Assembly: GCA_035221665.1 (NCBI GenBank)
Contig: CM069156.1
Span: 12,028,001 to 12,092,000, forward strand
Direction of reading: 5' to 3'
DNA from: Okamejei kenojei
Lineage: Eukaryota
DNA: 64,000 nucleotides
Below the pieces are notes generated by a model, which saw nothing but the letters and a program-made list of their open reading frames with translations, ran no database searches and was not told the origin of the DNA. A program made the translations under genes and the position numbers. Shown one piece after another: positions 28,516-56,023 of this stretch (within the stretch, counting starts at the first letter, position 1; each line of letters starts with the position of its first letter).

Positions 28516-29699
28516 ACACTGAAGTTACAAATATTGGTCGAAGCTGAGTTGGTAGATTAAACAGTTGAAGACGTTTTAGACTACAGGGTAAATCAACTGG
28601 TTTCCTGGTGCTCATTGCTGCTCAGCGTGTCACTGGACTAAGTATGCGTCAACTGTCATAGTCACAGTGAAAACAGTGCATCATTAGTGCAGATCTATCT
28701 CAACATACTGCGGTGACAACTGAATTTTAAGGGAAAGTACTTGCAAGTAAATATTATGGAGAAGAGGTAAAATAGGTCAATGTGGTACTAAAAGAAAGGG
28801 GGGAACTTCATTTCCATAGTATACACAAAATGCTGGAGTAACTCAGTGGGACAGGCAGCATGTCTGGAGAGAAGGAATGGGTGATGTTTTGGGTCGAGTA
28901 ATTTCCATAGTAATGGTGAGAACATGGGAAACAGGTAAATGACAGTGAGTATAACATGAAGGCAACATAAACTGGTAGAACTGCTAACCTAAATTGGAAA
29001 ATTATAACATTTGAACTGCTCATCTAAAATGGAAAATGACAAAATTTGGAAAGCACATGCGAGCGATCTGGCAATTTGATTAGTGGTATTATGACAGTGC
29101 CCTGCGTAGGAAGCCTTTTTGCATCACCACTGCTGGAATAGACGAAAAGCTGGAATTTTAAAAATCCAGTTACATTTTTGTTAATACATAAATTGCATAA
29201 ATAAAATGGATTTCTTACTAAGACTGGAAGAAACTTGGCAACAGAACTTTCTGCACCATTTGCAGACTGACATCACCTCAACAACCCAAGGAGCTGCCAA
29301 ACCAGAGTGCAGCTTGATGAAAACTGGCAAGTCTTGACCAACTGCTTTTTAAAGCCCTTTGATACCTAGTTACACAGGGTTACATGTCAGCTGTGCTGGC
29401 GAGGACTTGCAAGTATTCCTGGCAAAACAGTTTGAGTGAAAAAAACAGCCAGAAAAAAAGACTTCATGTCATAGGTAATTAAAAGAAATTAGAATTCAAA
29501 AGCAGGAAAACTCATTCCAGGCCGAGGTACAAAATCTCCAAACACAAGCCCTTTATAGATGTTAACAAGAGAGCTGCATCTGTTTAGGACGGATGATATA
29601 AAGGAGAAGAACGTTGTTCCTCACTGAAATACCTTTCACAATATTGGAGACTGGTGTGAAATCCACAGTCTCTCAAGGTTTCTGGTTCAATTCAAAGGC

Positions 29700-30634
29700 T
29701 GGAAGAATTTATTTTTGATTGGTAGAACAGTTGATGGTTCACCTACCTAGTTCCTGATTTTTATTTTGTTTTGGTAATCCAAAATAATTTTAAAAAATGA
29801 TAACATTTGAAAAGTTCCAACCTCATTTCACTTTAAATAACAAAGAAAAAAAAGCTGAATCCTTTAAAGATACTCTTCAGATCTTGTCAGCCTTTTCTCT
29901 AACATTGCGGGGAGCGATAGCACCACTTGAGAATCTTCATCAGCAAGTCTTCTTCACATGAAGAAATGACAGCGAATAAAAAACTGTTATTAGCAAAGGA
30001 GTAAGGCTGAGATCAAAAGAGAGACTTCAAAGACTGCCTGGCAGCTCCTCACCCACAGTAGCAAACACGGAGTCTTATATTTAGAGCAGAACATTCTTGG
30101 ACCATATCATTTCGCCATCAATGGTAGTGTTATTGTGAAGAAATAGAATTTCCACAGAACACTTGCAGTTGTGCTGATGAGATGTCGATCACTGCATTCT
30201 TCCAACCTTGACAAGATTTGAAAGCTCTTAGGGACTAATTGAGTTTTTAAAAAAAAGATATTGCCATTTTGTGATCAGTATCTTACAAAATGTCGACTCC
30301 AGCCGTTGTGTCTGTTGGTGTTTACTGGGCTTTCTTTGGCTTTGGCAATCAAATGGGTTAAGATCAATCCCTTTAAATGTGAAGAGTTTTGTTTTTCCCA
30401 GGGCCAAATTTTCTTGTGTTTATGGCAAACAGAGCATCATTGAAAAAGGAAAAAGAGGAAAAAAAATGTTACCATACCTTAACAGCCAGAAAGAGCAGGA
30501 CCAGTAAAGGAAGTAATGCTAGATAGTCATGCAGAGGAACTTTTCTCAGTGATACTGAGTGAAAGTCACTTCATCCCACAAAGTGGCTGAAAAGCCCACA
30601 TCACATTGGTAGATTCTTTCCTATTTTGTGTTTC
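29700..30634 (-). other. STX1A: Probable 3' UTR of the canonical STX1A isoform (true end unknown)
   Basis: Repeat-free sequence directly after the TGA. Minus-strand AATAAA hexamers near 29708 and 29760. Confidence 0.5.
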
Positions 30635-30715
30635 TCAAAATCCAAACACTCCCCCAACTGTGGAGGCAATGACGACCCCCAGCACCACACAGCATATAAT
30701 GATCATAATCTTCTT
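30635..30715 (-). CDS. STX1A: Canonical syntaxin-1A terminal exon (transmembrane domain and stop)
   Basis: CTAAC branch-like motif, pyrimidine tract and CAG. Translates KKIMIIICCVVLGVVIASTVGGVFGF then TGA, matching the STX1A tail with the CC pair. Confidence 0.96.
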   Translation of the reverse strand, partial: KKIMIIICCVVLGVVIASTVGGVFGF

Positions 30716-31579
30716 CTGTAGCCCCCAAATCCAAGCAGCATGACAGGAAGAAGAGGAGAAAGTGTTAGTTCTGTAACTTTATTTACATTTAAATGATTCA
30801 GGGTCTTTACAGAATGGAAGATGAAGCAATTCCAAAACAGATTATAACCTTCCCTTTCAGTAAATGTTCTTATTGATATCTTCTTGTTGCAGGCTCTTCA
30901 TTTTAACAAACCATTAACATTTCAGAACCTACCTTGAAACATAAGTCCCTCACATTTCAAACATCTCGCGCACCACACATCTCTCGGTATAAATAGTACA
31001 CCACATATTCCATCACCACACTCCATCATATTAAGAAGCCATCCTCACATTAGACAACTGCTCACATTAGATGCAGACATACAACAACAATGCTCCCACT
31101 TCATATTATAAATCTCTCTTCTTAACAAGTACCTGACATTAAACACTCGCTCATGACATTATTTGTAGCTGGAAACAGCTGGGGAGGTAGAAAGTATGAT
31201 GTCTTCTTTCGACCTTTAATCCCAATGTAAAATGTTTACACATTATTGAATTTAGTTAATAAGTTTCTGACTGGCATCTTACCCTAATCTACTTTTTGCT
31301 GTCAAATTTGTATTTACAGTAATTGAAAAGCTTTGCAAAAGGAGCAGATTTTGGGAGAAAGACGAGAATTAAAAATACAATTTGGTTCAATTCTGAGTTG
31401 ATAATACAATACAATTTTAAGAGAGGGGTGTGATTGCAAGTGTGTGCACAAAGAGGTGTAAAGTGCATATCCGCATGTAAGAATGTTATTTATTGTCAAT
31501 TCACTTACCATCATCAGGCATTGAACTGCATAGGGACACATTTTAGATTCCCTGTTGAGATGTCTGTTAAGATCTAGAC

Positions 31580-31799
31580 CAGGGGTTCTCAACCAGGGGG
31601 GGATTTCAGGTTTTCAGGGGGGGAATTGGGACCACAAATTAGCAAACTCAAACTGTTAGAAATAAAGGATTTTCAGTATTATATGCATATTATTTGGAAT
31701 GCACTTTTTGAGGCAGACAATCTTGGAAAGGAGGGGGGGAATGACATTCTGACATATGTTGAAAGGGGTGCATGGGGCAAACAAGGTTGAGAACCACTG
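31580..31799. mobile_element. hAT/Charlie-type MITE
   Basis: TIRs CAGGGGTTCTCAACC / GGTTGAGAACCACTG and perfect 8-bp TSD ATCTAGAC (31572-31579, 31800-31807). Confidence 0.92.
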
Positions 31800-33294
31800 A
31801 TCTAGACTGTAATATAGACCTAAACTATCTTCTATTCCTTGTGGTTAATGGAATCATCAGCTTCTCCAACTTCTGACAGTCTGTTATAGCAGCTCAACTG
31901 CTTCCCATACAGTCTCTCACTCTTCACCTCACACACACCTTGTGAAAGGGTTGTAAAAGTTTTAACAGTAGAGCAGCCATAAAATCTACAATCATGCAAA
32001 ACAGCAAGCCACATCTTCAGAAATGGACGAAGAGAAAGTGAGGAATGTAATGCTGATACAAGAAGAACTGAGTAAAATCTAGAAAGGTACAAAACACCTG
32101 TAAAACAATGGCACTATCCACGTATTACATAGTGCTGTAGTTTTACAGCTGGATAATACTGTTCCAGTAACACATTCATTAGCAGTAGTGGAGAACGGGA
32201 AAGGGTCCATGCTGTAACACAATACATTTCTCCCATGGCAACAAGGCTCCTTTACTTTTGGGGAGAAATCGTATTACTTTTATTGCATTGTGTATTTATG
32301 TTTTTCCGTGGAGTCTATTATTATTTAGGCAGCTTCACTTTTTTTTTGGCTAAATAACAGCACTTCAGTAGTTTGTATCACAGTTGATAATTTCTTTGAG
32401 ATCAACGAATTATTGTATTTTTATTATTTTGCCTTTGTCATTATTTCCTTTACAAGAATTGTTGTCAGTGTTACATATGCCCATATATAATATGTGATAA
32501 AAGAAATGTTGACAATTATCATTTTCCTTTAGTATGGTGAAAAACAAGCCGATAGAATGGAACTATAATCTTCAATGAATGATTTTTTTTTTAAACTGGA
32601 AGGGCCAAGTGAAAGAATTGTGGAACAAAACTTGTTCAACAACCAGATATTACTACATCTGTTCAAGCCATTGGTTAAACTGCATTCAGAATATGATCCC
32701 AAATTTGGTCAGTACAATTTTGGTAAGAACTTAATAAATAGTGCATAACATTTCAGTGGAGTATGAGGCTTTAGTGGTGGTGAGACTAGAGAAAAAGTAA
32801 TACTTTTGCTACTCTATAAGATTCTAGGAAGTCTGATGGGCATTTTTTGATCCAAGAAGGTATCTTTCTTTATTATCTGTCCAGAAAATACAAATTTAAG
32901 ATTACTACCAAAAATAAGGAAAAGTTAGAATGTTTTTTTTTAATGCAGGGCCTATTGTGTTGACATTTGTCAGTGTCATTAAATTCGATCTATATTTTTT
33001 CCTAAAGAACTGTTCATGACTGCAAATTCATATATGGCAATGTCCATACTCGTTCCTGCATCTGCACATGAACATGGATCTGTGATTTATTTTCCTGCTC
33101 TTTAATTTTTTTTATTTTTATGGGTTTAATGGCTTGGATTTTCCCAAGAAGATGGCAAGAATTTCTCATTGTAACTTATGATACTCGTGCAAACATGAAA
33201 CTTTCAAAAGGAATGCCTGTGGATTAATTCACTGTGATGTTTGTAAAGTTTCTTGGGGAGTTGATCAAGTTGGGAGGTTTTTACCTGGCAAAGT

Positions 33295-33615
33295 ATATTA
33301 AATTATGAAAGGCATAGATAGATAGATTAGACAGTCAGAACTTTTTTTCCCATGAGGGAAATATCAAGTGCTAGATGGCATAGCTTTAAGGTAAGAGGGG
33401 CAACATTTAAAGATGTGTGGGGCAAGCTTTTACGCAGAGTGCCTGAAACCTCTGCTGATGGTCGTGGTGGTGTCAGAAACGATAGTGGCATTTAAGAGGC
33501 TTTTGACAAGGCACATGGATATGCAGGGACATAAGAGTTGGCCTTGGCATCATGTTCAGTATAGACATTGTCATCCGAAGGGGCTGTTCCCGTGCTGTAC
33601 TGTTCTATGTTCTAT
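33295..33615 (+). mobile_element. Degenerate CR1-like LINE 3' fragment
   Basis: Homologous to 38214-38573; ends GTGCTGTACTGTTCTATGTTCTAT. Confidence 0.7.
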
Positions 33616-34354
33616 TTTTTAGGGCCAATTTTCTTCAATATGTGCGTTGGGATAATTTGCATCAAATAACAGCATTTTTTTAAATGAGGACCCATGGATT
33701 GGTGTATATGTCCGATCTGTAGATATTTGCAATGGATCATCTTTACTATCATGTTACAGTAGGCTGTAACTTCCTGGTAGTGGAAGGCTGCCCTTCTTCA
33801 GCAATAACATAGGTGCTAACCATTCATTTATCTTTTGCTGATCCTTCAGTGTCAATATTTTGTATAGTCCCATCTTATTCTAAAAGGGAGAGATTCTACA
33901 CAGTGACGTGGTCATGTTATGCAATGGTGACATCTGATAGACTAGAACAAGCCCAATATACAAAACAGCTGAAAGAAAAATCTGTCAACCAGTAAAGCTA
34001 CATCTCAAGCTTTACCAGCTGTCAAGAACTCTGAATGTCACTGGCATTATAGGAACATCCAAAAACAATTAAAAATGAATAAAGCAACATGTTGTATAAA
34101 TAAATTAATAATTAATAATTAAAAAAGCATTTAAAATAATTAAAAAATATTAGAGCAAACTTATGCATCCAATCGAATGTGAACTACCTTGCTCTTCCCT
34201 CTCATGGTCGTTCCTCTCTACTCAGGTGAAAGGGGCCTGATGCAGGTTCAGTGAAGAAGTTTCCCAACACAACTACTGGGGACTTCTGCAAGTTCATGGA
34301 TCACCACCAGATTCCATAAGGAACACTTGGGAAACTGTTGGCAGAACTCACTTA

Positions 34355-35038
34355 CAATCCCGTTTACATCAACGGGACGATGGTGGAAAAGGTCAAGAAC
34401 TTCAAATTCCTGGGCGTGCACATTTCCGAAGATCTTTCCTGGTCCCAGCACGCTGATGCAATTATAAAGAAACCACATCAGCACCTCTACTTCCTGAGAA
34501 GACTACAGAGAGTCGGTATGTTAAAGAGGACTCTCTTGAACGTCTACAGGTGCACAGTAGAAAGCATGCTGACTGGTTGCATCGTGGCTTGGTTCGGCAA
34601 CTTAAGCGTCTAGGAGCAGAAAGGGATACAGAAAGTTGTAACCACTGCCCAGTCCATCAGCGGCTCTGACCTCCCCACCATCGAAGGGATCTATCGTAGT
34701 TGCTGCCTCACCAAGGCAGCCAACATCATCAAGGACCCACACCATCCTGGCCACGCACTCATCTCTCCGCTACCATCGGGCAGAAGGTACAGGAGCCTGA
34801 ATTCTGTTATATCCAGGTTCAGGAACAGCTCCTTCCCCACAGCCTTCAGGCTATTAAACTCGGCAACAAACAGACTCTGAACTGCAACAGTCTATTGCAC
34901 TTTATCTGCTTATTTATGTGTATATTGAACTAAACTGTTCTGTATTTTTGCTTACAATGTTTTGTGTTGCAGCAAACAAGAATTTCATTGTCCTATCTGG
35001 GACACATGACAATAAACTCTCTTGACTTGACTTGACTT
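34355..35038 (+). mobile_element. Rex1/Babar-type LINE 3' fragment
   Basis: PVYINGTMVEKVKNFKFLGVHISEDLSWS...LYFLRRL...YRCTVESMLTGCIVAWFG; AATAAA plus (CTTGA)n tail. Confidence 0.88.
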
Positions 35039-36649
35039 AGCAAGTTGGAGACTTCCACAATTGCCCGGGAATCTTCCAACCTCCAAAACCTAGGTGTAAA
35101 TTTCAGCAGTTCGGGGCTAAGCATAGTGTTTGCAACAGACCTGAGATCAAGTTATATTCTGAAGAGATACCTAAAATAGCCACCAGGGAATGCCCAAAAC
35201 CTATACTTCTATGGACATCAAGAGGTGTTTTACAAAGAGACCATCAGCTAAATTGGAAGCTCGTGGAATAGAAGAATTAGCAGTTTAAGATTTGACTGAG
35301 TGGCAGCAAACGGACAATAGAGTTAAGGGTGGATGTTCAAATTGGCAGTGTAATTAAGATTAATGTTGGGGTTGCAAAGATCAGTTGTACTTGGATGACA
35401 TGATAGAAAACAACATATTGTATCTGCCTGACATGGCAAAACCGGAAGCATTATAGACAGGAGCATTAATTTATAAGGAGCTAATGGATTAGGCAAATGC
35501 ACAAAACAGGACTGATGTGACAGAATACTTTCCAAATGGTGTTAAACCAGAAACAATGGAGATCCAAAGAGGGCTGGATAAAGTATCACAGAAAATAATA
35601 GGGCAAATATAATACTGGATTTTATATTGAGATTTTATAATATACTGGATTTTATATCGAGAAATAAAATGAAAAGAAATTGAGCAATTCTGCTACAAGT
35701 CATAATTGGACCATCTGTGCAGTCTGTGTGCTACAAGTTGGGAAGGATATTTTGGCCTTAGACAGGGTAAAGCAGATTTATCGCAATAATATCTTAATTC
35801 TGAAATTCAACTGAATCTTAAGGATTTCATAACTGAAATTATGCAAAGGCCGTATTTCATGCAATTTACAAGGTTAAAGGGTTATCTGACAAGATTTCAA
35901 GATAATAAAGGGAACATAAACCAGATAAAGAAACGATTTCCACTGATTTAAGAGTTTAAGATGAAATGGCAGTCTAAAAATTGAAGTGAGGAATGAACAC
36001 TTGTACTCATAAATTAGTCAGTCTGGAACTGTTAAACTCAGATTATGAGGTTGATAGATTTTTATTGGGAACTAGACCGTGCAGACCCGTTGGGAGGGGG
36101 ATTGGGGGTTTGGAGCGCTGGAGTGCCCCTCCCTCCCAGAGTGGCCCGACCTGCCTTGCAAGTGCATTGTGACGTCACTCAGATTTTTTTTTTCAAAATG
36201 GGTGAGTTTGAAGAAATCAGGCTGTTTTTAAAATGTCAACGATTAATAACCAGAAATGTAGATGGAAATGCGACGGGAAGATATTTATCTTCAATTATTA
36301 TCTTTAGATATTATTTATTAAATGTGAGTAGGATTTGTGAAAATGGGAAGGCTGTGGCCTAGCGTTTGGAAGATGATAGGAATTAACCAGATTGACACAT
36401 TCAGAGACACATCGTGGGCACAAACAAGACAAAGACTTTTAGTTATATAGAGATAACAATGGGAATAAGCAAACTTTGTTTTAGACAGTCCCTTAGGATT
36501 TTGGATGAGTTGCTTTCATTCTGGTTCTGAGGTGGCTGATAAGGCCAATGTAAGACCTACATTGGGCAAGTGTGGCTAGTGGGGTGGTCAGGTACGTGGG
36601 GTGTAAAGCAATGAGCTCCTTCTGCTCATTACGTTAACCTTCTGCATGA

Positions 36650-36880
36650 TTTGTTTAGTTTAGGGACACAGGATGGAAACAGACCCTTTGGCCTGCTGAG
36701 TCCATGCTGACCAGTGATCACTCGTTCACACTAGTTTTATGTTATCCTTCTTTCTCATCCAAGTCCATACGGTTAAAGGGAGAACGTGTAAACTCCACAC
36801 TGACAGAACCCAAGGTTGGGATCGAACCCAGGTCTCTGGTGCTGTGAGGCAGCATATCTACCAGGTGCACCACTGTGCAG
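36650..36880 (-). mobile_element. tRNA-derived SINE, internally deleted
   Basis: GGGATCGAACCC is the reverse B-box; TTTAGTTTAG is the reverse tail. Confidence 0.75.
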
Positions 36881-37686
36881 CCCGAAACATGCGGCCGAAA
36901 TTCTCAGCATCCTTCCGAATGCTCCTTATCTACTTTGAGCTGCCGGGATGGGCTCAGAAATCTTACGTTACATTTTTTTTTCTCCAAAGGAGGTGGATAT
37001 ATTAAGTCACTGAATGGGCACAACAAGATCTGGGAACTAAATGGGTGAGTTCTATTCCAACATTAATTTAGTAAAATTTGCTTGGCCATTTGCAGTGAGA
37101 ATGACGACTAGTTTGAGTGAGATATTGACAAAGAGAAAAGAGGGAGTTGAGAGGGAGAAGAGTGGAAAGAAAGACTGAAAGACAGGATAGAAAAAAAAGG
37201 TAAAATAGCAAGATGGGAAAGAGAGAGGAAGGGAATGGAGAGTAATTGATTTTAAAAGTATTTATAAAAATAGAAAAATCGCTGCAGAACTTCACCTGAA
37301 TTCATCGTGAACTAATAAGTTTGTAAAATCATGGATCATACTCTGTTAAGGCAAGATGCAAACCAATAATGCTTCTTAAGATTATAAACATTGAAATTAA
37401 CCCAAAATGATAAATAAAAGAGTGGTGCTTGAATCCTGATGTTGCTCTTCAGCTTATGGAGAAGCCAAAGCAAGCAAGGTCCGCACTGAAGAGAAGTTAG
37501 ACCTGAATCATGCACTTGGGGCCTGTAAGCAGCCTTTCCAGGAAAATCCTAGGTGTTGGCAAAATGAAATGGAGGTGTCCAGGAATGATGAGTTGTCGTC
37601 TTTCCTTTTTACACAAGCATACATGGAACAACAGCCCAGCTTTAGTCTCAGTCAGGATAATTCGGTGGATCATGTGCTTTCGAGCA

Positions 37687-37764
37687 TTAACTGAGAGACA
37701 CAGCCAAAGCAATGATGATAATCAACAGTACTACTGCAATGCATATTCCTATACAGATCATTTT
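37687..37764 (-). CDS. STX1A: Alternative terminal exon encoding a second tail-anchor transmembrane domain (syntaxin-2B-like)
   Basis: Strong acceptor TTGTTTTCTTCCCTTCCCACAG. Phase-0 frame KMICIGICIAVVLLIIIIALAVSLS then TAA, a hydrophobic C-terminal anchor of the expected length. Confidence 0.85.
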   Translation of the reverse strand, partial: KMICIGICIAVVLLIIIIALAVSLS

Positions 37765-38213
37765 CTGTGGGAAGGGAAGAAAACAATTTGGTGAGACTCA
37801 GCATGCAAATACGCACATCACAAAGAAACCACAGTAGCAAATAAAACATTCAAAATGTCTTGCAAATTTCTGGCTGACAACTGGGCATATGTTACACACT
37901 GGAATAATACATTCAAAGACATGACAGGACACCAAACATGTCCTCAAATATCTATGGCTCAAGGTTGGTTAATGTTGGATGGCCAATTGAATAATGAGAT
38001 AAAACCATGGCAGTACCTGTGATGGGACTGTGGCAGTGTGTTCAGGGCACTGTAATCCCCACAGAGCACCTCAGACATTTCTCCAATAAAGAACCTCCAG
38101 AATGAGGTTTTACGACGTTTACTTTCAGCATTAAGATTCAGACTGCTACTAGAGCGCTTGGGTGTCAAGTTAGGGAAAGTCGCTTTTAGTTCGGATGGAG
38201 TCCCATCTTGCTA

Positions 38214-38573
38214 CTTTATAGAGATGTGTAAGATCATGAGAGGAATAGATCGGGTAAATGCACAGAGTCTCTTGCCCAGAGAAGGTGAATTGAGGACCAG
38301 GGGACATAGGTTTAAGATGAAGGGGAAAAGATTTAATAGGAATCTGAGGGGTAACTTTTTCACACAAAGGGTGGTGGAAGTATGGAACAAGCTGACAGAG
38401 GAGGGAGTTGAGGCAGGGACTATCCCAACATTTAAGAAACAGTTAGACAGGGACATGGATATGACAGGTTTGGAGGGATATGGACCAAATGCTGTCAGGT
38501 AGGACTAGTGTAGCTGGGGCAAGTTGAGCCGAAGAGCCTGTTTCCACACTGTATCAGTCTATGATTCTATGAC
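38214..38573 (+). mobile_element. CR1-like LINE 3' fragment
   Basis: KIMRGIDRVN...RTRGHRFK...FFTQRVVEVWNKL; ctatgattctatgact tail. Confidence 0.88.
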
Positions 38574-39705
38574 TCAGTGACCAGTTGCAGACAGGCATCA
38601 CACAAGACTTCAGGGCTTTCATTACAAGCACGAGATCTGCTTCTCACAGATCTACACCCAGCACCAATGGTTTGCCCAGACTATACAAGTGGGTGGCAGA
38701 GCCAACACAGCAGAACATGCATGCTGCCCCCATGCTACTCTCTGCCAGGGCATTGAGGTGACAATCAGTTTTTCCGTTCAGCACATGGTCCATTTTAAGG
38801 CTCGGTTTGTCATAAATAGGCACAGCATCAAATCAAAAACACATCTTAACACACAGCAGCCAAACTCTCAACACAGCATTTGGAAGAAGCATGGAATTCA
38901 AGCTGCAATCATCAAGCCTTAGAATATCTGCAATTCAACAATAGTATGGAGATTGTGTCAAAATGGACAAAAATAAACCAGTAGTAGAGGACAATGCACC
39001 TGTAACTTGCTTTGTGTATCTGTGCAGAACTGCTTAGCTGTTAGATTGTCAGGTTGAAATGTTGCCAGCATACAAGTCCAATGCTGGCGGTCAGTGCAGA
39101 AGTCACTGATAGGATGTCGGATTTGGAGGAAGTGGGCTGTTGACTTGCTAACATTATGGCATCGTCTAGGTAGTCCCATTTAAAAGGCAAAGCTTCCTCA
39201 GACATGATCTATCAGTCAGTTGCTTCTGTTTACGTTATGTGGTGTGACAATATTGGCAACTGGTGCTATATGCCTGCAACTATTCTCTCCCAGAGGGAAA
39301 AAGGACTTGTTGTGATTACATAACTGCCAAATCCAGGTTTCAACCATCATTTTAGATGCACTAATGTTTTTCTATTTAGTTTTAATGAGCATATATTCTC
39401 CTTTTTCAGAATTTTTGTGCATTTCTTTTCAGCAACTATTTTTACCTGGTTTCGCTTGGAATTATATTTTAATCACAATTTACCCAGTAATACTTCTCCC
39501 TAAATGTTTTTAGAAAGCTTTATAATTACCCTTACTTTTCCTGGAATAAAGAGGAATTAAAGATGTTCAAACATCTCCTGGACTATTTTTCCATCATCAC
39601 TATCCCCTTTATATATTTAAAATAATTGCAAGTCATGTTAAACATGCCTTTCTGACCTGCGTAGTATTACCGCATAATTAGGAAAATTCACTGTTTGCCG
39701 TTCTA

Positions 39706-39748
39706 ATAAATCTAATAAATCCAATTTAATTGGATTTATTAGATTTAT
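39706..39748. repeat. Perfect AT-rich palindrome, 21-bp arms with 1-nt spacer
   Basis: ATAAATCTAATAAATCCAATT-T-AATTGGATTTATTAGATTTAT. Confidence 0.9.
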
Positions 39749-39789
39749 CTAACACATTTAATTAATCGTCTTTAAGAATTTCATAAGGG

Positions 39790-40925
39790 TTTTCTGAGTT
39801 TCTAGAGGCGGTAACAAAGGAGATTGATGAAGGCAGGGATTTTAAATGTCGTTTAAATTGACTTTTGTAAGGCATTTGTAAGGTCCCATGTGGTAGGCTA
39901 ATCCAGAAGGTTAATGCACATGGGATCCACGGTGAGCTGGCTAATTGGATCCCAAATTGGGAGTGGTGGAAAGATGTTTTTCTGATTGGAACTCAGTGAC
40001 CAGTGGTGTACCGCACGGATCGATGCTGGGACCTTTGCTGTTTGTGATATATATTAATGACTTGTGTGTTTGTGTAGGAGGTATGATCAGTAGGATTGCG
40101 GAGACACAAAAATCGGTGGTGTTACGAATAGCAAGGAAGCTTGTCTAAGACTACAACATAATTTCAATCAGATGAAAAGTTGTGAAGAAGATTAACAGAT
40201 GGAATTTAACCCCAGCAAGTTTGAGGTAATGAATTTTGGGAGGTCAAGCAGGGCAAGGTTAAATGTTTGGAGACTTAAGGAATACTGATGAACAGAGGTC
40301 TATGGGTCCAAGCCCCTAGTTCCCCCAAAATGGCACGCAGATCAGTAGGGCCGTGAATAATGCATAGAACATGAGGCTTCAGTGGCGGGGCATGGAATGT
40401 AAAAGTTTGGATGTTTTGTGGAAATTTTACAAAACGCTGATTAAGCTACGTGAAGGACAGTATTTTTGCACAGTTCCGATTGCCACACGTGAGGAAGCAC
40501 GTGATTGCACTGGACGGTGCGGAGGAGATTCATCAGGATTGGAGGACATTAGTTATGGGGAGAGAGTGAATAGAACAGGCTTATTTTCACTGAGTAAAGG
40601 ATACCAAAGGGTGACCTGATAGAAGTACATAAGATTCTGAGAGATACAGAGGTACAGAGAGAGGATAGATAGTCACAACCTTTTCTCAAAGTAGGGCATG
40701 AATTTTAAGGTGAGAAGATGGAGCTTTGAGATTGATATCTCAAACATGCTGCCATAGTAGGTGGCAGGATCAGATTAAATGACTACATTTAAGAGGCATT
40801 TAGACATAATTTAAATAAGCAAGCATAGAGTGATACAGTCCTAAAGTCAAATTAGTGTAAATCGCAAAAAGGTTGGCATGGATGTTTTGGCAGAAGGGCC
40901 TACTTTTATGCTGTGCAACTCTAAG
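39790..40925 (+). mobile_element. Degenerate CR1-like LINE, reverse transcriptase to 3' end
   Basis: [28 protein letters not shown] motif and downstream decayed ORF2 tail. Confidence 0.85.
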
Positions 40926-43448
40926 AGTCTTTATATTCACACCCTATACCATCAAGGTTGCAATGATGGGAAATAGTAATTTCTCACTGTGTCCTACTAT
41001 ATCATAGAGACTAATTCTGACATAGTTGTAAAAATTAACCAAAAGTTTCTCTGCTTATTTTCATCAGCCCAATTGGGTGAATTTCTCCAAACCAACTTAA
41101 AAATAGTAGATTTAATTTGAGAGAACACCTATCACCAATTTCCACCCACAAAACCACACCTTACCCCTACACACAAACATGCAAGCAGAGCTGATTAGCA
41201 GAAGTGCAGTGATTATGTTAGTTAAGGATGGCACTTCAATTTATGCTCATAGAAACCTAATTTTTTTTCATTTTTAATAGATCAAAATTTTAATTAAACT
41301 ACCTATGAAGCTATCAGCCGCACACTGATGAAATGATTCAGTCAAGGTTATAAAAGATATGTTTATTGACTGTATCAGATTACCAGAGATTGAAGAGTGG
41401 ACTCATATTAAACATCTCTATTCTGATGATAAATCCATTTTAAATTGTATTAATAAAAATGCCCTAAAGTTATTTCTTGGTGTAGGTGATGAAAAAAAGA
41501 TAAAAGTTCTGTTCTACTGCCCAACTGACCTTCATTGAAGATTTTAATTTAAACAGGTTCAGGTTTGCACAATGAACCACCAAAATTAAACTTTGGGCAT
41601 GGTTGCCTGATTGCCCAACCCAAACTGATCAAATTTGGTTTTTAACCTAAAACAGGCTGCAGCTTATGAATTGTATTTGCTTATTTTGAATTGTGAATTA
41701 ACAAGCTTGCATGTTTTTAGTAACAGAAGGCAGAACACTGGAAGAACTCAGTGGGTCAAGCAACGTCTGTAGATGCAAGTGGGTAAGTAAATATCTCGGA
41801 TGGGATTCTACATCAAATCCAGACCTCTTTGTGTTCTGTTTATCGATCCAGATTCCAGCATCTGCCGTCTCCTTTGTCCTCTTCTAACATTTCTTTATGT
41901 TTCAAACCCATTCCCCATATGACAATTAATTAATCAATTAATTAATTAATGATTAGACTCAACAACATTCTTACCATTCAGTGACATTTGGTGCTCACAC
42001 CTATCAATAGAGCTTATTTCGATTTGAAGTACATGTATCCTTGGTTGCTTGCTTTAGAATAAATGGCAATAATGCTACTGTAACAGACGTATGTGAATCA
42101 GAGTGATTAAATTATAATAAATACACACTACGGATTGCGTTGGAATAGATGAAAATATGATAAATTAGTGGCATTAATTGGATTGTATGAAAGCCAATTA
42201 AGTGAGGACAAAACTGAGGTAGATTTCGCAAAGTGTAATCTTTAGCTTGATTGGCTCCAGATAGGTTGGGCTGGAATTAATATCAAGTAGCAGAATAATG
42301 AGTTGAGATTGATTTGAGGTAGATTATAGTGGACGGATTTTAATAGAAATGATTCAATTATACTGACTGCTTCTGCCCACATCTGCAGAATGAATATTTC
42401 TTATCCGTTGACTGTAAAACTTCAAAAATGGCCCAGACTAAGTGACCTAGTCCAAAACCAAACATAATTAAGCAGATTTTAAAATAAACCAGAGCTAATG
42501 CAGGAAGTTAAAAAAATAATAATGCTGGTACTACGAGGAAGCTTTATCGAGGCACAAGTGAGATATGTGGGTTGTTTGTTGTTGGATGGAGACCTTGCCT
42601 TACACGAGGCCTTGACAACTGGTGAAGATGGGTGATACATACAGTGGCCAAGAAAGTGGAAAATAAAATAGAAGTTGACAGCTGTGTTGTGCTGACCTGT
42701 TATATACCGTTGGGCAAATAACATTGGATTGATTTTATTCAAAATGATTAAATTTAGATAGATTATAAGAGAGTGAATTATATCAGGATAGGTTTATTTA
42801 TAAGACACTGCAGTGGTATTGATTTGACAAGGACATATTGAATTCCCCGATGGGAGGGATACAATAAATAAATACTCCTGGACAAATTGCACCATCTGAG
42901 ATTAGATTCTACTCACTGATATATATTGGAGATAGATTTAAACAGGCAATGCATCATTTATGCATGATGGGTGTCAGGGGTTATGGGGAAAAGGCAGGAG
43001 AATGGGGTTAGGAGAGATAGATCAGTCATGATTGAATGGCAGAGTAGACTTGATGGGCCGAATGGCCTAATTCTGCTCCTATCACTAATGACCTTATGAT
43101 TTATTTGAATATTAAATATATTGCAGCAGAATAAGTTGAATTATGGAATTTGTACAGGGAATAAATTGCACTTAATTAGATGCTGTTAGTATTAGCAAAG
43201 TCTCAAGATAGATGACAAGGGGAAAATAATGGTCGATTTGTTTCTCCTCTGTTCTTCACCATGTCATTGAATGATTGTTAACTCACTGTATGTAAGTCCT
43301 GCCTCAAAATTCTTCCAATCCCTCTGTAAATGGAGCTGGCAAAATGTCATATTACATTAGCTTGTGTGTGACAGATGGTGTATTGGCTGCTTTTGTGATC
43401 AGAGGTATGAATGAAAATGGCCTCTCCAGGCAATGGGCATGAAAGACC

Positions 43449-43663
43449 GTGTGGGAAAGAACTGCGGATGTTAGTTTAAATCGAAGGTAGACACAAAATG
43501 CTGGAGTACCTCAGCGGGACAGGCAGCATCTCTGGAGAGAAGGAATGGGTGACGTTTTGGGTCGAGATCAGTCTGAAGAAGGGTCTCGACCCGAAACGTC
43601 ACCCATTCCTTTTCTCCAGAGACGTTCCCTGTCCCGCTGAGCAACTCCAGCATTTTGTGTCTA
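43449..43663. mobile_element. Penelope pLTR-derived fold-back element with intact hammerhead core
   Basis: ~80-bp inverted arms, CTGAAGA-AGGGTCTCGACCC-GAAAC-GTC at 43573-43600, perfect 13-bp TSD GGCATGAAAGACC. Confidence 0.85.
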
Positions 43664-43959
43664 GGCATGAAAGACCTACTGAATGTAGTAAATGTCAATA
43701 CTAAGAGGTGCACGCATCTCTCCCAGGGTCCCACACCAAAAATGTTGCCCAACTTCTCTTTTACATACATCACAGAATTGGCTAAAGCCTGTGTTCTCTG
43801 CATCACACACCACTCATCAAAAACTATGCCTCGGAGTGTGTTACTGTGCAATGTTGTGAATAGATGAACATATTCACAAAGGTAAGTTTACATCATCGCC
43901 CAAATTTCATGTATCTATTTGAGATGTCAGATCACTTTCTTCACTTAGAGGGAGTACAG

Positions 43960-44483
43960 GGAAGGTTCTTGCCATAGAGGGAGTACAGAGAAAGTTCACC
44001 AGACTGATTCCTGGGATGGCAGGACTTCCATATGAAGAAAGACTGGATAGACTCGGCTTGTACTCGCTGGAATTTAGGAGATTGAGGGGGGATCTAATAG
44101 AAACGTACAAAATTCTTAAGGGGTTGGACAGGCTAGATGCAGGAAGATTGTTCCCGATGTTGGGGAACTCCAGAACAAGGGGTCACAGTTTAAGGATAAG
44201 GGGGAAGTCTTTTAGGACCGAGATGAGAAGATCATTTTTCACAAAGAGAGTGGTGAGTCTGTGGAATTCTCTGCCACAGAAGATAGTTGAGGCCAGTTCA
44301 TTGGCTATATTTAAGAGGGAGTTAGATGTGGCCATTGTGGCTAAAGGGATCAGGGGGTATGGAGAGAAGGCAGGTACAGGATACTGAGTTGGATGATCAG
44401 CCATGATCATATTGAATGGCGGCGCAGGCTCGAAGGGCTGAATGGCCTACTCCTGCACCTATTTTCTATGATTCTATGATTCT
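43960..44483 (+). mobile_element. CR1/HER1-like LINE 3' fragment (young; near-identical to 5004-5392)
   Basis: ORF 44016-44387 YEERLDRLGLYSLEFRRLRGDLIETYKIL...; 3' UTR and (CTATGATT)n tail. Confidence 0.93.
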
Positions 44484-45165
44484 TACTTTTTACTTCTACT
44501 TTCATCAAGAAGATGTTCTGCTTTTCAGAATGTGGGGCAAATAATCATTGCTGAACCATAGTTTCACCCAGGCAAACAACAGCAATGAGATGGGGAAAGA
44601 GATTGCAAGATTTATAGTGTACATCATGGTCTAAGTTTAAATCCAGGTTATAGAGAGGTATATGCAGCACGGGATCGCATGCTCCTGGACGTTATTTTTA
44701 ACGTGCCTCTAGAATATCTTGTTTCTGATTTATAAATGTTTGAGTTACACCTTTTAAATACGTGAAAAACTGTGCAGCAACATAATGCAATGTGTGCACT
44801 TCTGAACTGTCGAAATTTCCTGAGGTGAAGATAGCAGTTACATTTCTGTGAAAGACTCACTGTCCCAGAGCCAATTATAATATGTGAAGAGTATGGCCCT
44901 TATAATTGTTATCACTGACAAGTCATAAAGCCAGTTGTGTGTGCAGAATATATAACCCTCACAAATTTTATTACAGCATGGGGCCCCCTCGGTGGGAGGG
45001 AAGTCGACCAACTGATGGAGTGACAATTATAGACACGCACGTGCACAATGAGATGAATTCAGGGTTGCGAAACATTTTTTTTTGTACGATCTCTTGTGAT
45101 GGAATTGGGGACGTATAGTGAGATGATCCACAACGCATGCAGGCTTGTTGACGTGCACTACTCAC

Positions 45166-45276
45166 CCGTCGCGCTTTACTCTGGTACTTAACCGCCTTTT
45201 TTGTGTCAGACACTGCCCTCTCTACGTAGTCAACTGAGTGCTCGACGTTGTATTCGATCCTGTCTATCATCTCCCC
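45166..45276 (-). CDS. STX1A: Canonical syntaxin-1 exon 9b: C-terminal half of SNARE motif and juxtamembrane basic stretch
   Basis: 111 nt, CAG acceptor, GTGAGT donor. Translates [37 protein letters not shown], essentially the vertebrate syntaxin-1 sequence. Confidence 0.97.
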
Positions 45277-45352
45277 CTGGGCATCGAGGAAAGAGCAGAG
45301 ACGCATGAAAGTAACAGAGGTGCTTCAGCAGCCATTCTCCCCAGTCACTTAC

Positions 45353-45463
45353 CCGCCGGCTTGTACTCTTAAAATTAACAGCTTTTTTTGTGTTTTCTTT
45401 TGCGTCACCTATGTAATCCGTTGCATTAACAACGTTCCTCTCAATGCTGTTGACCACATCACC
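45353..45463 (-). CDS. STX1A: Alternative (putatively mutually exclusive) exon 9a: syntaxin-2-like C-terminal half of the SNARE motif
   Basis: 111 nt, phase 0/0, TTCTTCTTCTGTTTCAG acceptor, GTAAGT donor, open frame [37 protein letters not shown]. Same length as and homologous to the adjacent canonical exon. Confidence 0.88.
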
Positions 45464-45997
45464 CTGAAACAGAAGAAGAAAGATTCACTCTTCCCGAAAA
45501 GCCCCTGGTATCCCAAGGAATTATATCACAAGCATTATATCTGGCAGCATTGTCCTTGAAGGGTGGGGGGCAATGTGAAGCCTCAAAGAGTCCCCACACT
45601 GCCACCCTGCACACTTTTCTGTTGCAAAGAGCCATTCCTCTATTCATGTGGGAACCACTAATGGTTTATTTGAATAGCAACACAGCATAAAAGCCTTACC
45701 CCACAATAACATAATGAGGCACTTATTCTCCCAAGGACTTGCTCATCAGAACATCCAATAACTCCCACATAGAAACCTGATGAAATCAACCAAGGTATGG
45801 GTTGGTTTTGAGTCTCTAGATAATCTTTTTGTTTACCAACTGGAGCATTTTCAGATTGTCATCTTTGCTGTTCAGGGAATTTAAACTGGAATGAATTTCC
45901 TTTGGGAATTTCACTGGAGTCAAAGGTGCAGCATATCTTACATTGCTGCACCTTTGACTTTCTTTAGGCACTTTACCACGTTTCAAGAGTCCAATAT

Positions 45998-46053
45998 CAT
46001 GCGTGTGGTTGGAAGTACATGCAATCATGCAAAGCTGCACTGTTACTGCATGC
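45998..46053 (-). promoter_or_regulatory. Cluster of four (T)GCATG Rbfox-type intronic splicing motifs upstream of exon 9a
   Basis: Plus-strand catgc(a) at 45998, 46018, 46026 and 46049, giving two TGCATG and two GCATG on the transcribed strand within 56 nt. Confidence 0.6.
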
Positions 46054-47622
46054 GACAGAATGTGTTACCTGCAGGACTCCACCGTCCAGTCCAGGGTATT
46101 AGCAGCAGGAGAAAACAGAGGCTGTTACCAGCAATAGGAAGAATAGACTCGCAGTCAGAGCCTCAAGGTGAATTGTGAATTAATGGAACAGAGCTCTTTG
46201 CAACTCTTATTAGATCTTTGCTCTTCTTGACTTTGATATCATTTTCCATACATCACAGTCCCTTCGATCCACACAACAGATCCCTTGTTTCTAACCTTTG
46301 GACAGAAGGTTGCAGAGATGGGGGCAGAAAGCGAGGGAAGGGAAGGAAGGGGGAGTGACACTTGGAGTGAGAAGTCTTTGCAAGTGGTTAGATGGTGTGA
46401 TCAACGAAAATAAGTGGGATGGTAGGGTCTGGCAGTGCAATGACAGAGGCAGCTCCAGGAATGTCTTGGGGGCACTTTCAGAAGCAAAGATTCTGCCTGG
46501 GAATCAGCTGACCTGCCCTTGGCTCTGTGGTAGCACGTTTGGTTCTGAGTGAGGCATTATAGAGCTTCACCTATCCTCCGCCAAGGATCCTCTCAAACAA
46601 TAAACAGGAAGTTGATTGGCAACCTTCACAAAGTGGACAGTGCCTCAAATCAGAGACGAGGTGTGTAAAAGAAGAAGAGGGCTGGGAATGGGAAGAAGCA
46701 CAGATACATGGTACTGCTCATTTTAAATAGCAGAATAAGGTGCATCCTTCCATTGTCCTTATTTTAGGAGACGGAGAGATTACTGCACCACTGTATCTCT
46801 TGTTTGCAGGATTGATGGTGAGACCATGATGGAAGGACTAATTCACTTCCCAGTCTAGTGTGGTGGATCAGTGGTTAGCTGGGTTGGATCACTGAAAATC
46901 AAGTGTACAATACCTCACATGACCAACGAGGCAAACTCCCTTTCCAGTGCATATAAAGTTATGCAGTCCAGGTTCCCTCAAGCCTTGTCTTCTTGGGGTA
47001 CTGGTAAAAGGAGACTACTTAGACTTGCCATTGGCAACTTTGGAGGGCATTAGTTGTTATCAGAGAAACCCAGAAGGAAGGTACAGCGTAGTCTAAAATC
47101 TAAACATATGGTCAATGGGTTCCACATCAGTAGATTACATTTAAGGTTGGCTCTCCGTGTATTTTTGAATGTTACGTGCATCAAGGAATATAGGCTTGGA
47201 TAGGAGAGTGAACAGTCTTGGATAGGAGAGTGGACAGTCATATCCTATTGACAATTGGCACAGACTCACAGTACTCTATGGCCTACTCTTGCTTTAAGGT
47301 GTTGCTCTTGGTCTTATGCTCTTGCTTTATAGGTTATGCTCTTAAACTGAGATTATGTTTTTCCCTGCAGCACGCAGAATGCTTGAACACTAGTCACTGA
47401 GCAGAGACTTCAAAAACTGAAGTGATAATTCTTCAACACACAATTCTTGTCAAATCAAAGTTGTTAAGGCAGTTAAAATCAGCAATAACATGGAACCATA
47501 AAGTTTTGTTTTACACTCAATCCACGATGACAGAGTAAGATGGACCTTTTCTGTTTAGTAACTGGTAGTTCCTGTCACACAGATTCAAAATGAGGTCTTT
47601 CTCTGTTTGATCGACATCTTAC

Positions 47623-47760
47623 CTGGCTTTCCACCAGCATTGCCATGTCCATGAACATATCGTGCAGCTCGCGAATACAGTTCTCCAGTTTGATGATCTC
47701 ATGATGTCGCGTTTCAATCTCATTTAGAGCCTGCTTCGTGATGTTAGAATCCATTATGAT
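47623..47760 (-). CDS. STX1A: Syntaxin-1A exon encoding N-terminal half of the SNARE motif up to the zero-layer Gln (human exon 8 equivalent)
   Basis: 138-nt phase-0 exon with pyrimidine tract+TAG and GTAAGA. Translates [46 protein letters not shown]. Confidence 0.96.
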
Positions 47761-48719
47761 CTAAGAGAAGAGAGAACCATGCAGAATCAGCTGACCAGCC
47801 GGGCATCACAGAACATATGTGGGTGTGACCAAATACTACAAATCCTCGAAGTTACTTTCAATTTGTAGTCTGAACAGTTTAGAAGCAGACTGTGACAAAA
47901 TCAGGGCCAAACCCCCCCCCCCCAAAACAGGTTTTTACCATTCCATCAGGACTTCCACATGTGGCATCACCCTGGTACGGCATGGTATTTTTAAATCAAT
48001 TGGCATCGGTTTAATTTTATATCGTCTTAGCTAAGTCTACATTCCAGGGTTAGACACTTTGTATTTTGCTCTGCAGTTCCTTGTATCTTCATCCTAGAGT
48101 TAAAAGACTGGAAATTCTCCATAAACTAGCAGTCCCGATGGGGTTAAAAAAAACCCCAAAGTGCTGGAGGAATGGTCTTGGAGCACCTATGGACGAAATG
48201 GACAGATGACATGTGAGTCCGGGACCCTTCTGATGTGTTTACTCTTAGTTTATCTTCAGGACTATATCTTTTCTCCTTACAAAGACTGCATCTCCATTCA
48301 CATGTTTAAGAACGAACTGCAGATGCTGGAGTAGAAATCGGTAGACAAAAATGCTGGAGAAATCTCCATTTTCTATACTACTAGGTTTTCTGATTCTGCC
48401 AGAAATACCCTACTATGCATTCCATCAAACGACAAAAGGTGAATCCTGTCAAATCCACTCATTACCGACAGTCTGGTTGGCTTAGCAACAATGTGGAAGG
48501 ATAGGCATTAAAATTTCACTGGCCAACCTGTAGCTCCTTGTTCCACAGCCCACCAGACATTTACTCACATCCTTGAGCAGCCAAAACTGTTACTGCAATA
48601 ATTTGTGTCTGGTTCAGATAATTGTGCCCCCAAGGATGTTGAAGCTGAGAGATTCGGTAATAATCAAGCACTTGAATATCAAGGAGTGGTGGCTTTATTG
48701 GAAACGACAACTGCAAGGC

Positions 48720-55949: not shown

Positions 55950-56023
55950 CCCTGATGTGAAGATAGCAGGATTCCCACTCTCCAGCATGTCTTCCAGCTC
56001 CTCATTTGTGGTCGTTCTTCCAG
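55950..56023 (-). CDS. STX1A: Syntaxin-1A internal coding exon (Habc-SNARE linker; equivalent to human exon 7)
   Basis: 74-nt exon, TAG acceptor and GTAAGT donor. Translates (T)[31 protein letters not shown] fits STX1A rather than STX1B (GKLAIFTDD) or STX2 (GKPSIFTSD). Length matches the recalled human exon. Confidence 0.95.

Follow-up and report, generated by a model that had tools for sequence, protein, structure and literature searches.

A second, upstream tail-anchor exon spliced in the syntaxin-1A gene of the ray Okamejei kenojei

The syntaxin-1A gene (STX1A), which is usually treated as encoding a single neuronal t-SNARE, carries in the ray Okamejei kenojei another tail-anchor exon, located upstream of the one encoding the canonical neuronal anchor. 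This upstream exon is real, spliced, and conserved, and three anchored isoforms are observed, i.e., the SNARE half-exon 9a joined to the upstream anchor, and the half-exon 9b joined to the upstream or to the canonical anchor. We consider it rather probable, as a whole, that STX1A splices 9a or 9b onto either of two tail-anchor acceptors 7 kb apart, and that the upstream anchor is likely an old homologue of the STX2B tail, likely giving a less nerve-specialised t-SNARE. Arrangements of this kind are known, since STX2 and STX3 do likewise, and the upstream exon is already present, with 9a and with 9b, in automatic annotation (RefSeq). The present analysis adds a junction map covering three of the four pairings, a probable shared 3′ UTR, a steric reading of the intron between 9a and 9b, and a hypothesis of three ancestral tails.

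The STX1A gene and its upstream tail-anchor exon

The window, i.e., the whole stretch of 64,000 nucleotides that was analysed, corresponds to positions 12028001-12092000 of contig CM069156.1 (C26; G000:C26:12028001-12092000) in the 2.76-Gb Okamejei kenojei assembly, and positions given without a prefix are counted from its first letter. Exons 2 to 9 of STX1A were located by tblastn with database syntaxins over the window and its flanks. On C26, exons 2-6 fall beyond the right edge of the window, and exons 7, 8, 9a, and 9b lie inside it together with both anchors, on the minus strand: exon 7, which encodes a linker (55950..56023, approximate boundaries); exon 8, which encodes the SNARE motif's N-terminal half and is common to all isoforms (47623..47760); exon 9a (45353..45463); an intron of 76 nt (45277..45352); and exon 9b (45166..45276), which also has a Pfam SNARE match. 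Matches to PF00804 and PF05739 place the Habc and Qa-SNARE domains on C26 in syntaxin exon order. Identity to crocodile STX1A is 97% in exon 3 and 96% in exon 8, vs 76% and 85% to pigeon STX1B, and exon 9b is identical at 36 of 37 positions to solved Syntaxin-1A chains. By sequence comparison, the gene is orthologous to STX1A, which it resembles more than it does STX1B, STX2, or STX3.

The assembly also holds a separate STX2-like locus (G000:C25:42151849-42154379, plus strand), in which one 9a-like exon 9 and one anchor were found; no second anchor of the 2B type was found in the ~35 kb downstream of this anchor, a region holding 500 N. The anchor of this STX2-like gene is identical at 19 of 26 positions to an abalone syntaxin tail. 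Searches of the assembly, which may lack these genes and for which the results are lower bounds, returned no STX1B or STX3 locus; STX1B records exist in other rays. Another syntaxin, intronless, lies in C13:40290301-40300426 (minus strand; L031-L032) and is presumably STX11/19-like; a partial copy of its 3′ part, carrying a one-codon gap or frameshift, is found 10 kb off. Just left of the window, a TBL2-like exon of WD40 type (L017:9727-9903, plus strand; a high-scoring Atlas lead) stands tail to tail with STX1A. We take TBL2 and BUD23 to be the neighbours of STX1A in human; in the ray, the BUD23 matches fall on C8 and not on C26, and BUD23 adjoins stx1a in a turbot model.

Read on the minus strand, the upstream exon (37687..37764) encodes 25 residues followed by a TAA stop, i.e., a basic juxtamembrane stretch followed in frame by a hydrophobic C-terminal helix; the canonical exon (30635..30715, minus strand) encodes 26 residues including C271 and C272. 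Seventeen of the 20 bases preceding the upstream acceptor (cacAG) are pyrimidines, vs 10/20 for the canonical acceptor. A strong acceptor and an in-frame tail of 25 residues ending in a stop had been pointed out here in an earlier note made from the letters of the sequence, and both are found. The upstream tail also has one juxtamembrane Lys fewer than the canonical one, as stated in that note. The upstream exon is in phase 0 after exon 9a and after exon 9b, and ~7 kb separate its acceptor (exon start at 37764) from the canonical one (30715). From exon 9 to the left end of the window, the only hydrophobic stretches above threshold on the minus strand are the two anchors, for which the best 19-residue hydropathy, in a simple hydropathy window, reaches 3.47 (upstream) and 2.83 (canonical). 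A third anchor exon was sought in the STX1A region and was not found.

When AG-to-stop peptides were scored against a profile of fish tails (8721 peptides, 264 kb, both strands), the upstream exon obtained 71.2 vs 20.5 for the next best, and none of 20000 shuffles reached its score. This profile was built from 11 distinct fish tails that were hand-picked as relatives, which makes the test partly circular; the independent test of the exon is thus provided by the junction contigs. The latter, in three of the four runs used, contain the upstream tail spliced into mRNA, and they enter the exon precisely at 37764, the position at which the earlier note had proposed to look for junctions.

Splice junctions and 3′ UTR

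Ten runs hold sequence from 36000-37800, and we used the assembled contigs of four of them (X1-X4), guessed to be RNA although none of the runs is recorded as such; the RNA/DNA guess labels X2 as 'probably DNA'. The four runs belong to one study and to at most three samples, from a close relative that is ~98% identical in the UTR. Assembled contigs drop rare forms and show neither levels nor a single 9-kb transcript, and each junction corresponds to one contig per run. On 44900-47900, the contigs cover exons 8, 9a, and 9b and the 76-nt intron only, and the bins of intron 8 have a depth of 0 in all four runs. This pattern, with joints of the GT..AG type, is that of cDNA, whatever the run label. 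A retrocopy was considered as the source of the spliced contigs and rejected: several isoforms and a retained intron co-occur, and the exon pieces display 0 differences. Searches of the assembly, which give lower bounds, returned no intronless STX1A copy of high identity, and this also counts against a retrocopy.

Exon 8 is joined to 9a and to 9b by GT..AG joints in 4/4 runs each. From 9a, splicing proceeds to the upstream anchor in two runs of the four (X1 and X2), and in X2 a single unbranched contig runs from exon 8 through 9a to this anchor. From 9b, the canonical anchor is reached in two runs (X2 and X4) and the upstream one, directly, in one (X3). In X1, the contig of 9b ends two letters past its donor, at the first difference between the two anchors, and that of the upstream anchor begins three letters inside exon 9, at the first difference between 9a and 9b; these contig ends suggest that 9b is joined to both anchors in this run. 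The contigs, which lose rare forms, display 9a joined to the canonical anchor in none of the four runs, so that the fourth of the 'up to four' anchored isoforms foreseen earlier does not appear. A spliced 9a-9b joint is also absent from all four.

On the 3′ side (29000-48000 examined), contigs with ~98% identity tile most of the sequence from 37765 to 29000 in 4/4 runs, with gaps at repeats, and the repeat-poor bins of the intron above 37765 have a depth of 0-4. One contig of run X1 (30687-31601) spans the canonical acceptor from the intron side. These contigs over the 7 kb between the anchors, together with the X1 contig, make it probable that the upstream-anchor isoform shares the 3′ UTR of the canonical one, and they argue against the separate 3′ UTR that the earlier note had given to each isoform. 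The near-continuously covered segment 30716..37686 (minus strand) would likely be a long 3′ UTR in the upstream-anchor mRNAs and an intron for the canonical isoform, and 28871..30634 (minus strand), covered by contigs after the canonical anchor, would be a probably shared 3′ UTR. In other words, the 7 kb and the canonical exon would remain as 3′ UTR in the upstream-anchor mRNAs, and the anchor choice would be made between two acceptors of a single long terminal region. AATAAA sites occur at 36319 and 36066, 1.4-1.6 kb past the upstream stop; contigs run on beyond both, and some molecules may use one or the other. Three contigs stop near 28871; a poly(A) site at this place was rejected, a short repeat having its edge near 28890, and the true 3′ end of the STX1A UTR, which was not found, is further left than 28871.

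The coupling between the 9a/9b choice and the anchor choice is one-sided, not strict. Its 9a side holds in both of the runs where 9a is spliced onward; as for the coupling proposed in the earlier note, the pairings of 9a with the new exon and of 9b with the canonical one stand, but their strictness does not, 9b being joined to the new exon in X3 and in RefSeq. A strict switch between two isoforms with separate 3′ UTRs, in which 9a would be used only with the upstream anchor and 9b only with the canonical one, could be drawn from run X2, which shows exactly these two unbranched contigs, from the two AATAAA sites, and from human STX3, described as 9A/10A vs 9B/10B (PMC8263458). We nevertheless regard it as very improbable: 9b goes to the upstream anchor in X3 and, from the contig ends, would branch to both in X1, six named fish models pair 9b with this anchor, and the contigs pass both AATAAA sites and reach the canonical exon. 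Taken together, X3 and the database models depart from a coupled switch of the STX3A/3B type. Alternatively, pairing could be free, all four combinations being made and 9a+canonical having been missed; both donors and both acceptors are in phase 0, so that all four are in frame, and contigs from three samples only lose rare variants. This is unlikely, because the 9a contigs run unbranched into the upstream anchor in both runs, the joint of 9a to the canonical anchor is found in 0/4, and both database models composed of exon 8, 9a alone, and an anchor use the upstream one. The one-sided coupling, in which 9b uses both anchors and 9a the upstream anchor, is the reading that we retain.

Contigs of three runs (X1, X3, and X4) retain the 76-nt intron that separates 9a from 9b. 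The reading frame is thereby shifted and continues for 40 more codons to a stop placed 64 nt ahead of the 9b end. A stop lying farther than 50-55 nt upstream of an exon junction triggers NMD; intron-retaining transcripts would hence be NMD targets, or give a tailless product. An equal reading of the same contigs is unspliced pre-mRNA. By a simple pattern match, the branch point could lie at 28, 41, or 47 nt from the 9a donor, and splicing across a short intron meets a steric limit at <50 nt (PMC5740500); with the branch point of the 76-nt intron less than 50 nt from this donor, 9a and 9b would be mutually exclusive. In the contigs, the 8-9a, 8-9b, 9a-anchor, and 9b-anchor joints are all found and the 9a-9b joint is not, which is how a mutually exclusive pair is recognised (PMC5740500). 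Fish models P0013, P0021, P0024, P0027, P0034, and others chain 9a and 9b into proteins of 320-330 aa; with the 9a-9b joint in 0/4 runs, such chained models may be artefacts. In catfish-type records, the 9a-9b intron is ~45-55 codons long.

Conservation and likely origin of the upstream tail

Conservation was followed in thirteen hand-picked, named fish proteins that end in the upstream tail. Identity to the Okamejei tail reaches 21/25 in Narcine, 20/25 in Scyliorhinus, and 18/25 in Anguilla; it is 15/25 in two Acipenser rows and in Polyodon, and 12-14/25 in six other teleost rows, one further row being out of register at 7/25. Puntigrus, additional to these thirteen, has 15/25. These alignments show conservation of the upstream tail across sharks, rays, sturgeons, and teleosts, and its presence in other chondrichthyans, which the earlier note had proposed to check, is borne out by Narcine and Scyliorhinus. 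Gly6, Cys8, Ala10, Ile18, Leu20, Leu24, and Ser25 are near-fixed. The C-x3-C motif singled out in the same note is present in Okamejei but is not a feature of the tail, only the second cysteine being conserved (Cys8 in 13 of 14 tail rows, Cys4 in 2 of 14).

The same exon is found at the same place, after 9a or 9b, in fish RefSeq/UniRef isoforms (XP_069766522.1, XP_043115838.1, XP_035241235.1, XP_058854271.1, XP_041096854.1). The models joining 9a to the upstream anchor are those of Narcine (XP_069766522.1) and Puntigrus (XP_043115838.1); database models joining 9b to it come from Anguilla, Acipenser, Polyodon, Scleropages, Paramormyrops, and Maylandia, with RefSeq models in eel, sterlet, paddlefish, and arowana. 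These records differ from the present description in being X-isoforms without names, and several others chain 9a and 9b. The nearest database protein to the Okamejei gene is that of an electric ray, and a homologue search with 9a yielded one protein from six candidates, too few to map the range of 9a. In the 23 tetrapod-named rows within the best 120 of 140 matches, where clustering at 90% can hide isoforms, the upstream tail was not found, which gives a hint only of its loss in tetrapods. Among titles and abstract openings, subscription literature being mostly outside this scope, we found no description of such splicing in fish STX1A, and syntaxins do not occur in PMC4494069.

The closer architectural parallel, one absent from the earlier note, is STX3A/3B rather than STX2. 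STX3A and STX3B are unlike each other in the SNARE motif's C-terminal half and in the anchor (PMC11476516, PMC11119284, PMC8263458), and the order in human STX3 is 9A, a 119-nt intron, 9B, 10A, ~6 kb, and 10B (PMC8373072). Okamejei STX1A displays the same order: two SNARE half-exons of 111 nt separated by a short intron, a non-neuronal anchor, ~6-7 kb, and a neuronal anchor of the CC type. Unlike STX3A/3B, however, the gene is STX1A, its upstream tail is nearest to the STX2B type (by eye, 7/25 to the human STX3A tail), and the upstream anchor is used by 9b as well; nothing equivalent to STX3 exon 11A was seen in it, the upstream isoform seeming to read through. On the other hand, the resemblance to STX2B resides in the 25-residue tail, with its single Lys at the start, its Cys at position 8, and its shared ending, and 9a resembles STX2 exon 9. 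Alternative STX2A and STX2B tail anchors occur in mammals and birds (PMC8373072; Quinones 1999, as cited in PMC11119284), and in human STX2 the 2A exon lies upstream of 2B (PMC8373072). There, of two non-neuronal tails, 2B is encoded by the downstream exon, and a single exon 9 precedes them, whereas in Okamejei STX1A the 2B-like exon is upstream and its partner is the neuronal tail.

The upstream tail shares 13/25 residues with bird (blue tit) STX2 of the 2B type and 10/25 with the tail of the ray's own STX2-like gene, vs 7/25 with its own canonical tail and 6/25 with bird STX3B. Compared by eye with human rows taken from the supplement of PMC8373072, it gives 12/25 for STX2B, 6/25 for STX2A, 7/25 for STX3A, and 6/25 for STX3B; the earlier note had given about 12 identities with the STX2 tail, and the tail that it quoted is the human sequence of this supplement. 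Exon 9a is identical at 25/37 positions to exon 9 of the own STX2-like gene and at 16/37 to 9b. An exon-9 tree (37 columns, 24 rows; Ciona, hagfish, mudskipper, Tetraodon, grenadier, and P0006 left out) sets 9b, rat STX1A, ray STX1B, and all invertebrate exons against 9a and STX2 exon 9 with a support of 100/99, the latter side forming no rooted clade. In a tail tree of 26 columns, the neuronal group obtains 96/97, and the STX2B type groups with the new tail, bivalve X1, the mosquito, and the hagfish row at 92/93, a value below the starred threshold; an open group is formed by the tails of the own STX2, abalone, millipede, and grouper STX2. Outside fish STX1A, the best identities of the upstream tail are with STX2B and bivalve X1 tails; the grouper STX2 and hagfish rows are out of register in the ungapped identity table, and their identities were left unused. 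The hagfish protein P0340, which bears the label Syntaxin 4, combines a 9a-like SNARE half with a tail grouping with the upstream anchor.

From these comparisons, homology to the STX2B tail is likely for the upstream anchor, which would be an old exon, an option seen in syntaxins 2 and 3. A real exon duplicated within gnathostome STX1A, with a likeness to STX2B due to the convergence of hydrophobic tails, is quite unlikely. The peptides are short and of low complexity, the tail tree is weak, the mosquito tail scores 62.5 on the fish tail profile, showing that hydrophobic tails can converge, and such duplications recur, e.g., in Pinctada and Penaeus, where exon 9 is doubled and both copies are of the 9b type. 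But a copy made within the gene is difficult to reconcile with an upstream tail nearer to STX2B than to its own canonical exon, with a 9a nearer to STX2 exon 9 than to 9b, and with an exon order equal to that of STX3. Doubled exon 9 is seen in several invertebrate syntaxin-1 genes (P0006, P0014, P0018; pearl oyster Pinctada, shrimp Penaeus, and a record with a 22-codon spacer), and these doublings, with both copies of the 9b type, are probably separate duplications.

Starting from an old STX2B-type exon, we tentatively propose, as a reading that is possible but still short of probable, that the ancestral animal syntaxin-1 had three ordered tails (STX2A/STX3A, STX2B, and neuronal), that the vertebrate ancestor added two SNARE halves, and that the paralogues divided the tails: STX2 would have kept the first and second, STX3 the first and third, fish STX1A the second and third, and STX1B only the third. 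The exon orders in the window, in human STX2, and in human STX3 all fit a single ancestral order, and the tails of molluscs and arthropods also sort into these three groups. The alternative-exon events of STX2 and STX3 have been dated to Bilateria (PMC8373072); the text and table of this source contain no STX1A entry. If the three-tail reading is true, fish STX1A still makes an STX2-like, poorly palmitoylated t-SNARE that was lost from tetrapod STX1A, and the 'neuronal' STX1A became purely neuronal through exon loss.

Predicted properties of the isoforms

In STX1A numbering, 9a puts a Thr at 260, in the place of K260, and the upstream tail keeps C271 and loses C272. The basic residues at 260-265 number three in 9a+upstream, four in 9b+upstream, and five in 9b+canonical. 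Palmitoylation and spontaneous release are supported in mouse neurons by a basic residue at 260 and by the two cysteines, features absent from STX3A (PMC9183232). Because of Thr260, of three vs five basic residues, and of the missing C272, the 9a+upstream isoform is predicted to be less palmitoylated, and would be more like STX2/STX3A in non-synaptic exocytosis. The 9b+upstream isoform is predicted to be intermediate, so that the isoforms would grade from a neuronal t-SNARE to one like STX2/STX3A; the upstream-anchor form is, on its residues, likely less nerve-specialised. Fish STX1A would in this way make natural chimeras swapping the SNARE motif's C-terminal half, K260, basic juxtamembrane residues, and transmembrane cysteines, which are the parts tied by mutagenesis to palmitoylation and spontaneous release (PMC9183232). 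This is relevant for fish stx1a mutants, for antibodies, and for gene models in which 9a and 9b are wrongly chained, as well as for reconstructions of how an ancestral set of splicing options was shared out among STX1, STX2, and STX3. In the SNARE layer numbering that we assume for 9a, all eight C-terminal layer positions are occupied by small or hydrophobic residues, so that the 9a half should still zipper.
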